Positions 22,234-22,730 of a DNA stretch of 64,000 nt are shown here, in pieces. Under the pieces are notes generated by a model, which was given only the letters and a program-made list of their open reading frames with translations, did not search any database and was not told where the DNA came from. The stretch lies in contig CAYXJO010000001.1 of the NCBI GenBank assembly GCA_964465205.1, positions 5,099 to 69,098 on the forward strand. Direction: 5' to 3'. The DNA is from an uncultured Gammaproteobacteria bacterium (GTDB lineage: Bacteria; Patescibacteriota; Patescibacteriia; Magasanikbacterales; GWA2-37-8). Position numbers and translations under genes: made by a program. Position 1 is the first letter of the stretch, and the number at the start of each line of letters is the position of its first letter.

Positions 22234-22281
22234 TTATTTACCTAATTTTAGCCATTTTTTGGGTTATCCACAGGGTAACCC

Positions 22282-22310
22282 TTGACAAAATGGCTAAAAT
22301 GTGATAATAT
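22282..22310 (+). promoter_or_regulatory. Sigma70-like promoter TTGACA-N17-TAATAT
   Basis: Consensus -35/-10 with a 17-nt spacer. A DnaA-box-like TTATCCACA lies 10 nt upstream. The promoter reads into the 22.32-22.73 kb non-coding unit. Confidence 0.45.
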
Positions 22311-22317
22311 TAACCAT

Positions 22318-22730
22318 CTCGCTTTTGTGACAGGCAGGGGAATTATCTTGAGCTATTATACTCGCTCACACCTGTCTGGTCGCTAAATGCGAGACTCGCA
22401 AAAAAACGGCGCAACCCATTGCCGCCCAAAGCCTGGGCAAGGAGAAAAGTATGAGCTGGCCGTAGCGTAAATTTGTTCATTGATCTAACCGCCGCCGGGC
22501 ACGCGCAAACACATCACGCCAATAGCCCGCGGCACCATGTCTGAACCGCCGACAACGTTTCGTCGGCATGGAGGTGCGAAATGACCTGGACCTAGGTACT
22601 CTGGAATAAATTTTATGCGTCAACCAACTTCGAACCCGCCGACCAACTGTCGGCATGGAGGTGCGACATGACCTGGCCCTAGCTCTTTCGACCACCCCCC
22701 TCGGCTATGATATGCCGGGGGTTTTTATTT
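22318..22730 (+). ncRNA. Candidate ~400-nt non-coding/leader transcript (promoter to terminator), with tandem 35-bp repeats and three SD-preceded 4-codon mini-ORFs
   Basis: Bounded by the 22282 promoter and the 22695-22730 terminator. No ORF of 60 aa or more on the plus strand. Mid-GC structured sequence in AT-rich surroundings. Identity not established. Confidence 0.3.
22695..22730 (+). terminator. Rho-independent terminator (CCCCCCTCGGC...GCCGGGGG + T-run)
   Basis: 8-bp G/C stem followed by TTTTTATTTTTATT. Confidence 0.6.

Follow-up and report, generated by a model that had tools for sequence, protein, structure and literature searches.

Analysis of a 64-kb stretch of DNA (64,000 nucleotides (nt); hereafter the window) from an uncultured bacterium revealed a non-coding unit that lies between the S1 gene and ftsH and extends for ~410 nt from promoter to terminator. 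Our analysis suggests, with a probability of about 0.4, that this unit specifies a lineage-specific, structured small RNA (sRNA) that recruits ribosomes to a minigene. In this best-supported reading the sRNA is young and independently transcribed, with a length of ~410 nt in the window and ~310 nt in a sister lineage (hereafter L-type). The conserved core of the putative RNA consists, in order, of a folded region named domain B, a short linker, a hairpin, a canonical ribosome-binding site (RBS) 2-3 nt further on and a mini-open reading frame (mini-ORF) of 4-6 codons that begins M-T/S-W-P/T. Most probably, ribosomes would bind at the RBS sites, translate the minigene and terminate at UAG, and the RNA would act via the translation apparatus. 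Possible effects include the occupation of ribosomes, the release of short peptidyl-transfer RNAs (peptidyl-tRNAs), the sensing of termination and the control of the RNA's own stability.

Minigenes of 2-8 codons are known to be translated and to exert regulatory or tRNA-sequestering effects (PMC8708949, PMC2490762), and hence provide a precedent for a ribosome-recruiting sRNA of this kind. An extended form of the proposal, which we consider unlikely as a whole, is that the unit represents a dedicated, free-standing and trans-acting 'minigene RNA' in a genome of the candidate phyla radiation (CPR). Such an RNA would load ribosomes onto a conserved minigene of 4-6 codons (fMet-Thr-Trp-Pro...), carry the module in 1-3 copies and tune translation via sequestration of ribosomes or tRNA or via RF1-dependent sensing of termination at UAG, and it would not regulate a neighbouring cistron. 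If true, an RNA built on a genuine-looking RBS and a four-codon ORF would constitute an unusual way to act on translation. Almost nothing is known of regulatory RNAs in CPR/Patescibacteria, organisms with tiny genomes. The case is a narrow one, comprising two sister lineages of uncultured groundwater bacteria, and is presented as a lead and not as a broad class of RNA.

Anatomy of the unit and its modules

The features of the unit are given below by their positions in the window. The modules U1, U2 and U3 are the three places where a Shine-Dalgarno (SD) sequence precedes a mini-ORF.

22242-22272 (+): upstream promoter element, with CTAATTTTAGCC at 22242-22253 and a perfect DnaA-box-like TTATCCACA at 22264-22272, 9 nt before the -35
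22282-22310 (+): sigma-70-type promoter, TTGACA-N17-TAATAT, with 10/12 consensus matches and an extended -10 TG
22317-22394 (+): long 5'-terminal hairpin H1, predicted fold of ~26 pairs in four stacked helices
22408-22438 (+): two small hairpins, GGCG/UGCC and GCCCA/UGGGC, the second of which stops 2 nt short of the SD of U1
22441-22465 (+): module U1, GGAG, 6 nt, AUG AGC UGG CCG UAG (M-S-W-P-stop), within the longer unit AAGGAGAAAAGT-ATG-AGC-TGG-CCG-TAG at 22439-22465
22491-22533 (+): domain B, three-helix stack, with P1 at 22491-95:22529-33, P2 at 22497-500:22525-28 and P3 at 22503-05:22517-19 closing an A-rich loop
22493-22510: conserved 18-mer CGCCGGGCACGCGCAAAC inside domain B
22548-22567 (+): hairpin P4, GCCGAC-AACGUUUC-GUCGGC, which stops 2 nt before the SD of U2
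22570-22595 (+): module U2, GGAGGUG, CGAA, AUG ACC UGG ACC UAG (M-T-W-T-stop)
22638-22654 (+): hairpin P4', GCCGAC-CAACU-GUCGGC, a repeat copy of P4
22657-22682 (+): module U3, GGAGGUG, CGAC, AUG ACC UGG CCC UAG (M-T-W-P-stop)
22698-22731 (+): intrinsic terminator, with a stem at 22698-22721 (8 pairs, 7 of them G-C, and an 8-nt loop) followed by the T-tract TTTTTATTTT

The promoter and the terminator that an initial annotation of this DNA had placed at the two ends of the unit were recovered by a consensus scan, and its three mini-ORFs, two of them in SD-ATG-ACC-TGG-(A/C)CC-TAG repeats and the other in a third unit, are present as described. Transcription would start near 22317. In agreement with the same annotation, no plus-strand ORF of 60 or more amino acids (aa) was found; the longest ORFs touching the unit are 47, 34, 27 and 23 aa. 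The repeats had been described as tandem and 35 bp long. Two copies are indeed present at 22562-22595 and 22649-22682 (34 nt, 94% identical by the repeat finder), but the repeated module is longer, ~52 nt, as the upstream hairpin GAACC(C)GCCGAC-loop-GTCGGC is also duplicated. The copies are dispersed direct repeats with starts 87 nt apart, and Tandem Repeats Finder (TRF) detected no tandem array. The 53-nt stretch between the copies itself holds partial repeats.

Comparison of the three modules with the single module of the L-type unit (module L) revealed that all four consist of GGAG(G), 4-6 nt, AUG, an ORF of 4 or 6 codons including the start, with UGG inside, and a UAG stop. The SD-AUG spacers are all different and of functional length (AAAAGU, UGCGAA, UGCGAC and CCCU). 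Codon 2 is ACC or AGC, and codon 4 is CCC, CCG or ACC, of which CCC and CCG are synonymous. The L-type mini-ORF reads M-T-W-P-S-I-stop (6 codons), which fits an in-frame 6-nt indel before UAG. The SD, the AUG and the first four codons are kept in the homologous region; a lack of conservation of the mini-ORFs there was among the outcomes that the initial annotation would have taken as a refutation. Retention of the SD, AUG, UGG and stop while the spacer turns over is expected of an RBS with its ORF; a contiguous seed for base pairing would not give rise to it.

The modules resemble the genuine RBSs of this genome. In the window GGAGG is followed by ATG within 3-8 nt at 14 sites; about eight of these open ORFs of at least 127 codons and two are U2 and U3. 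The form typical of genuine genes is GGAGGTG-N4-6-ATG, as in U2 and U3. Stop codons among the genes here are TAA (38), TAG (9) and TGA (4), and all four mini-ORFs end in UAG; as the module copies are not independent, the shared UAG was given little weight.

In predicted folds a hairpin ends 2-3 nt ahead of the SD in all four modules (U1, U2, U3 and L), despite unrelated sequences, and the AUGs have unpaired probabilities of 0.53-0.99 (0.93 for the AUG of U2). Predicted folding of the unit is stronger than that of shuffled sequences on the plus strand (z = -3.5); the minus strand also exceeds its shuffles (z = -2.6), and folding energy alone is therefore weak evidence. Comparison with the sister lineage provides the stronger argument.

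The kept part of the module is GGAGG, 4-6 nt and then AUGACCUGGCCC. U3 and the L-type module share the 12-mer ATGACCTGGCCC without a mismatch, with GGAGG 6 nt ahead in U3 and 4 nt ahead in the L-type. Together with the upstream GGAGG, the 12-mer is the longest exact match between the window and the L-type outside the promoter block (blastn-short E = 0.007 for the 12-mer alone). Such conservation at the nucleotide level would suit a sequence-specific binding site, and it has to be weighed whether the unit is an untranslated decoy or sponge sRNA. Here hairpin-GGAGG-AUGACCUGGCCC would mimic an initiation region and titrate a repressor (CsrA-like, or an autoregulator of the ribosomal-protein type), an sRNA or the 30S subunit, and the peptide would be irrelevant. 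Repetition of SD-like modules on a promoter-to-terminator RNA of CsrB-like size and a structured hairpin directly 5' of every module are in line with this. However, there are only 1-3 modules, and the GGA is predicted to lie not in a hairpin loop but on the 3' side of the hairpin, in partial pairing with codons 2-3. Furthermore, U1 differs at two internal positions of the 12-mer and keeps the AUG, UGG and stop, a pattern that fits coding-type constraint better. A gene starting ATGACCTGG was found neither in the window nor in 87 CPR loci, and the window contains no gene start of the ATGACCTGGCC type; the ATGACCTGGCC matches in two loci (L001 and L049) that were considered as gene starts are antisense to the gyrA codons G-Q-V-I. 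A decoy is on balance a rather improbable explanation of the modules.

The promoter-upstream elements of the unit also occur elsewhere. The perfect DnaA-box TTATCCACA is present eight times in the 64-kb window versus ~0.5 expected for a uniform 9-mer, at 8810, 11797(-), 22264, 32664(-), 41627(-), 45075(-), 63004 and 63460. It often lies just 5' of a -35, as at 11797 (a 623-aa gene) and at 22264 (the unit); a TrmB-like regulator gene has the site at 41627 in its promoter region, and the one at 63460 is near an HU-like gene. The element CTAATTTTAGCC occurs at 22242, 41601(-), 41641(-), 56416 and 63439(-), and motifs like it are over-represented (15 matches with at most 2 mismatches versus 6.2 expected). 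The two elements are paired at three places: the unit, 41601-41652 and 63439-63468. They may constitute a common promoter-upstream or operator element, or mark a small DnaA regulon.

Synteny and independence from ftsH

The closest homologues of the S1 gene are annotated as Candidatus Magasanikbacteria or Patescibacteria, and the host is an uncultured Candidatus Magasanikbacteria bacterium (CPR), whose genome was viewed through the 64-kb window. The neighbourhood of the unit is as follows.

20922-22145: S1 gene, four-domain protein, upstream of the sRNA unit
22763-22791: promoter of ftsH itself, between the terminator of the unit and ftsH
22812-22917: inverted repeat with 25-nt arms, ahead of ftsH
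22931-24760: ftsH, downstream of the unit (Pfam FtsH_ext, AAA and Peptidase_M41)

A total of 80 species-representative GTDB loci around S1 were used for comparison. Most of the loci with ftsH inside the fetched flank have the order S1, short spacer, ftsH, and the spacer in those relatives contains nothing but the S1 terminator and, conserved among them, the ftsH promoter CCTTGATTTTT...TAnnAT. Three further relatives, with S1 82-83% identical, have a spacer of ~110-130 nt before the next gene and no unit. As far as the sequences indicate, S1 runs directly into ftsH or the next gene in relatives with S1 identity of 83% or less. The closest S1 contigs (92%) end before reaching the position of the unit, and exact-match look-ups with the FtsH and S1 proteins of the window retrieved no record. 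The window retains the ancestral ftsH promoter (22763-22791) 3' of the unit. Since this promoter is kept downstream and is found in relatives without the unit, the unit is to be regarded as an inserted, independent transcription unit and not as the leader of ftsH; it constitutes a ~500-nt insertion between the S1 terminator and the ftsH promoter.

The sole lineage with a homologous unit is the L-type, represented by groundwater contigs L081-L087, L208 and L212, with S1 91% identical in local BLAST alignments and 88% identical when compared full length. Its unit is ~310 nt, non-coding, at the same position after S1 and with its own promoter and terminator. It is followed not by ftsH but by a gene for a 935-aa protein with a promoter-like site of its own. 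This protein lacks any Pfam domain, the window encodes no homologue of it, and a functional link with the unit was dropped for these reasons.

These arrangements bear on the initial annotation, which had offered two views of the unit. An independent sRNA upstream of ftsH is favoured by the unit's own promoter and terminator, the retained ftsH promoter and the different gene that follows the sister unit. The other view, a leader peptide or attenuator for ftsH in which Trp-dependent or termination-dependent stalling modulates the terminator, is contradicted by synteny and by the conserved promoter of ftsH, and we regard it as very unlikely. It has in its favour a Trp codon in every mini-ORF, Pro-stop in two of them, a terminator 15 nt past the U3 stop and ftsH downstream. 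Yet ftsH has its own promoter, conserved where the unit is absent, and the sister-lineage unit precedes the unrelated 935-aa gene; moreover, the L-type mini-ORF ends ~110 nt ahead of its terminator. In the window, a ribosome positioned on the stop of U3, with its leading edge ~12-13 nt beyond the A site, would stop short of the terminator stem. No convincing antiterminator was seen in minimum free energy (MFE) or ensemble folds.

Searches by blastn and regular expression over the 80 GTDB S1 loci, and with the motif also over seven homologous contigs, matched the sister lineage alone. When metagenomes were scanned with the promoter block, the Joint Genome Institute (JGI) contig already known was the sole match. 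Viral sequences were scanned with the 18-mer of domain B and with a loose and a strict form of the motif, which gave chance matches or ordinary M-T-W-P gene starts. In one phage lineage (L216, L219 and L225 of IMG/VR) an intergenic GGAGGTGCCTC-ATG-ACC-TGG-CCC-TGA follows a 501-aa ORF, for example at L219 461-483. This is also an M-T-W-P mini-ORF with a strong SD; one such short ORF among 24 motif matches in the collection is about the number expected by chance.

In Magasanikbacteria the spacer between S1 and ftsH is a hotspot for insertions. Bro-N-like small ORFs (L003 and L047), unrelated small ORFs on either strand (L017, L022 and L027) and long GC-tipped hairpins (L012 and L050) occur in it. 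Two relatives carry a tRNA-like element of ~72 nt there (L015 5432-5503 (+) and L042 5530-5603 (-)), with a 7-bp acceptor stem including G3:U70, a GGGGUUCGAWUCCCC T-arm, an encoded CCA and a very short D-arm. Its acceptor stem covaries between L015 and L042, and the conserved leader on its 5' side, GGUGGAAU, complements the 3' UCCACC. The element is missed by ARAGORN and by Rfam gathering thresholds; its weak best matches are transfer-messenger RNA (tmRNA; 18.9 and 16.4 bits, with the model ends matched and the middle skipped) and mascRNA. In L015 a short upstream transcript is complementary to the internal arm of the element.

Unusually long composite hairpins with AT-rich arms of 24-25 nt and a G+C-rich branched tip are found at window 22154-22232 and 22812-22917 and at L081 ~4775-4895. 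One of them is the S1 terminator and another occupies most of the ftsH 5' untranslated region, which has no SD sequence; the sister-lineage S1 terminator has the same composite design in unrelated sequence. Two segments of the window are visibly far richer in G+C than their surroundings, one at 9803-11674 (-) with the 623-aa ORF behind a DnaA-box promoter and the other at 15187-15859 (-), a cluster of overlapping ORFs that adjoins tRNA-Arg (15091-15163). Both may be horizontally acquired.

Conservation between the two lineages

Four-fold degenerate sites in S1 are only 51% identical between the window and the L-type, so neutral DNA should not align. The unit interiors gave no blastn alignment and are essentially unalignable. 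As MAFFT alignments of the two lineages were out of structural register, no covariance model was made and the helices were compared by hand.

The promoter block, including the upstream element (conserved in L081-L087), is nearly invariant across the lineages and comprises the DnaA-box-like TTATCCACA, GGGYACCC and TTGACAAAA-N-TATACT. The L-type promoter is TTGACA-N17-TATACT with TG at the matching relative place, and the L-type terminator is its own, of different sequence. Within the unit the 18-mer CGCCGGGC(A/T)CGCG(C/T)AAAC occurs at 22493-22510 in the window and at 5070-5087 in L081, and domain B is predicted in both RNAs (L081 5062-5105). Helices P2 and P3 are identical in sequence in both lineages; P1 is GCCGC:GCGGC in the window versus GACCGG:CCGGUC in the L-type and pairs in both. 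The pre-SD hairpin is at the same place in unrelated sequence, GCCGAC/GUCGGC in the window versus GCGCCAU-AAUA-AUGGCGC in the L-type, where it ends 3 nt before the SD. A long 5' hairpin opens both RNAs, again in unrelated sequences. From the order of domain B, ~70 nt and module, the single L-type module corresponds to U2, and U1 and U3 are extra copies; among the three modules of the window one is an old duplicate (U1) and one is recent.

Six L-type strain sequences contain 23 variable columns, of which 21 are unpaired in the consensus fold and two are paired (both G-C to G-U). Variation thus avoids predicted helices, with a Fisher p of 1e-5 for the alignment consensus structure and 0.002 for the single-sequence MFE structure.

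Two single-stranded linkers of the L-type unit are nearly fully replaced between strains (CGCTCTTTTTCCAAAAGA versus CCCTGATCTTTTAGACGA and GCACAACA versus AAATAAAT; L081 5047-5061 and 5106-5113), and a poly-C tract at L081 5183-5190 ranges from 8 to 11 C. Recombination, diversifying selection or homopolymer assembly error are possible sources of this local hypervariability.

The same comparison bears on whether the unit is the relic of a small gene. Such a gene, with a 5' leader made up of domain B, the hairpin, the RBS and M-T-W-P, would once have been located between S1 and ftsH; its body would have decayed or been deleted in both lineages, leaving little or no function, and the extra modules would be slippage duplications. 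The insertion hotspot in relatives, with its Bro-N-like ORFs, small ORFs, tRNA-like elements and long hairpins, is compatible with this history, as are the coding-like G+C, the divergence of the unit interior to about the degree of neutral sites and the finding that GGAGG...ATGACCTGGCCC in viral contigs is usually an ordinary gene start, M-T-W-P.... Decay does not readily account for the promoter, terminator, domain B and RBS-start module being kept in both lineages despite 51% neutral identity, nor for the old duplicate U1 keeping its SD, AUG, spacing, Trp codon and stop. Throughout the L-type unit, the 3' domain included, strain variants spare the predicted helices, and there is no protein-level similarity between the lineages past MTWP. 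We consider a gene relic doubtful.

Several observations weigh against a ribosome-recruiting sRNA with a translated minigene. The unit is present in only two lineages, one of which consists of near-identical strains. ORF length (4 versus 6 codons) and the Pro-stop context differ between the lineages, so that two properties of the mini-ORFs as first described, the four-codon length and the stop after Pro, are not conserved (M-T-W-P-S-I-stop in the L-type). The SD is predicted to be mostly paired (unpaired probability 0.15-0.39) in small local hairpins, in part with codons 2-3 in a weak 4-bp hairpin. The variable strain positions cluster in the two linkers and hence are not independent events. 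No compensatory double change was found in the tool-scored alignment, and the lineage comparisons of P1 and P4 are those made by hand. The G+C content of the unit (54-56%) is close to that at four-fold sites of the neighbouring genes (60-64%), and composition is therefore no argument for selection. To our knowledge, no biological role has been described for a four-residue product.

Known RNA families and comparable systems

Rfam at gathering thresholds identified five tRNAs in the whole 64-kb window and nothing else, and a permissive search of 22100-22960 gave only chance-level hairpin matches outside the unit proper. The homologous L-type unit likewise has no Rfam family match, and the unit has no match to the Csr/Rsm clan or to riboswitch, T-box, ROOL, GOLLD or OLE families. 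The assignment to a known family that would have explained the repeats was thus not obtained, and the initial view that the unit is not tmRNA, RNase P, signal recognition particle RNA or 6S RNA agrees with the absence of Rfam and ARAGORN matches.

It was nevertheless weighed whether the unit is a highly divergent tmRNA or supplies the coding piece of a tmRNA made in two pieces. A tag ORF, ...GEKYELAVA-UAA, would begin at the A-rich stretch and GCA (22401-22414), with the repeats as the pseudoknot region. The frame ends in a tag-like YELAVA and a stop, CGCAAAAAAACGGC-GCA resembles what we take to be the resume-codon context of E. coli, and the size and the promoter-terminator format fit; two relatives also have mini-elements like the tRNA domain of tmRNA in the S1-ftsH spacer. 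However, no GGGG acceptor, T-arm or CCA of a tRNA-like domain was seen in the unit, ARAGORN detected no tmRNA in the window, and a search of 22100-22960 gave no tmRNA match even at E <= 10. Neither the tag-like frame, compared in L081 and L085, nor the resume context recurs in the homologous unit, and both map to a linker that is hypervariable between strains. A tmRNA is the least probable of the explanations considered here, and extremely so.

Protein coding was rejected as well. A minus-strand ORF of 72 aa is an Arg-rich antisense of the repeat, and tblastx between the lineages found nothing beyond MTWP. Frames are not common to both lineages, and in the L-type strain variants 1-nt indels and the poly-C tract (8-11 C) break every frame. 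Given these indels and the lack of a tblastx match beyond MTWP, the unit is non-coding apart from the mini-ORFs. A type III toxin-antitoxin RNA and a mini-array of clustered regularly interspaced short palindromic repeats (CRISPR) were discarded on account of the absence of a TRF array, the neighbours S1 and ftsH and the single-copy homologue. Genes for tRNA split by divergent group I introns are described for Patescibacteria (PMC13011429); no tRNA halves flank the unit, and this candidate was also set aside.

Comparison with known systems revealed partial likeness in each case. Like tmRNA (ssrA), the unit has the length, a strong promoter and terminator and, in the window genome only, a tag-like frame, but it has no tRNA-like domain or model match and the tag is not conserved. 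Leader peptides of the TnaC, TrpL and ErmCL type share with it a short Trp-containing ORF, a strong RBS, a nearby intrinsic terminator and, in two of the four ORFs, Pro-stop. Unlike those leaders, the unit shares its transcript with no regulated gene and is followed by different genes in the two lineages. Its ORFs of 4-6 codons are too short to reach the exit-tunnel constriction, and the position of the stop and its distance from the terminator both differ between the lineages. Dual-function sRNAs (RNAIII/hld, SgrS/SgrT and SR1/SR1P) are also structured sRNAs with a small ORF; their small ORFs are at least 26 aa, whereas the ORF here has 4-6 codons and is repeated. The CsrB and RsmZ sRNAs are similarly free-standing, a few hundred nt long and built of repeated SD-like GGA modules beside hairpins. 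In contrast to them, the unit has 1-3 modules, GGA outside loops, a conserved AUG and next 9 nt, and no Rfam match.

The phage lambda bar minigenes are among the known minigenes. Others include the two-codon mg2 in the axe-txe leader and synthetic minigenes of 3-8 codons, and they act by loading ribosomes or via peptidyl-tRNA drop-off and the sequestration of tRNA (PMC8708949, PMC2490762). The unit has in common with minigenes the SD, the AUG, a very short ORF, a stop and a short transcript. The known ones are embedded in the leaders of phages or operons, where they affect a neighbouring cistron or are active only if the cells are pth-deficient, whereas the unit described here is free-standing, terminator-closed and structured, has no downstream cistron, and combines a conserved M-T/S-W-P/T start with a three-helix domain and a hairpin. 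If the ribosome-recruiting reading holds true, a minigene RNA that stands alone, is closed by a terminator and keeps the start of its peptide would represent a novel arrangement compared with the leader-embedded cases known so far.

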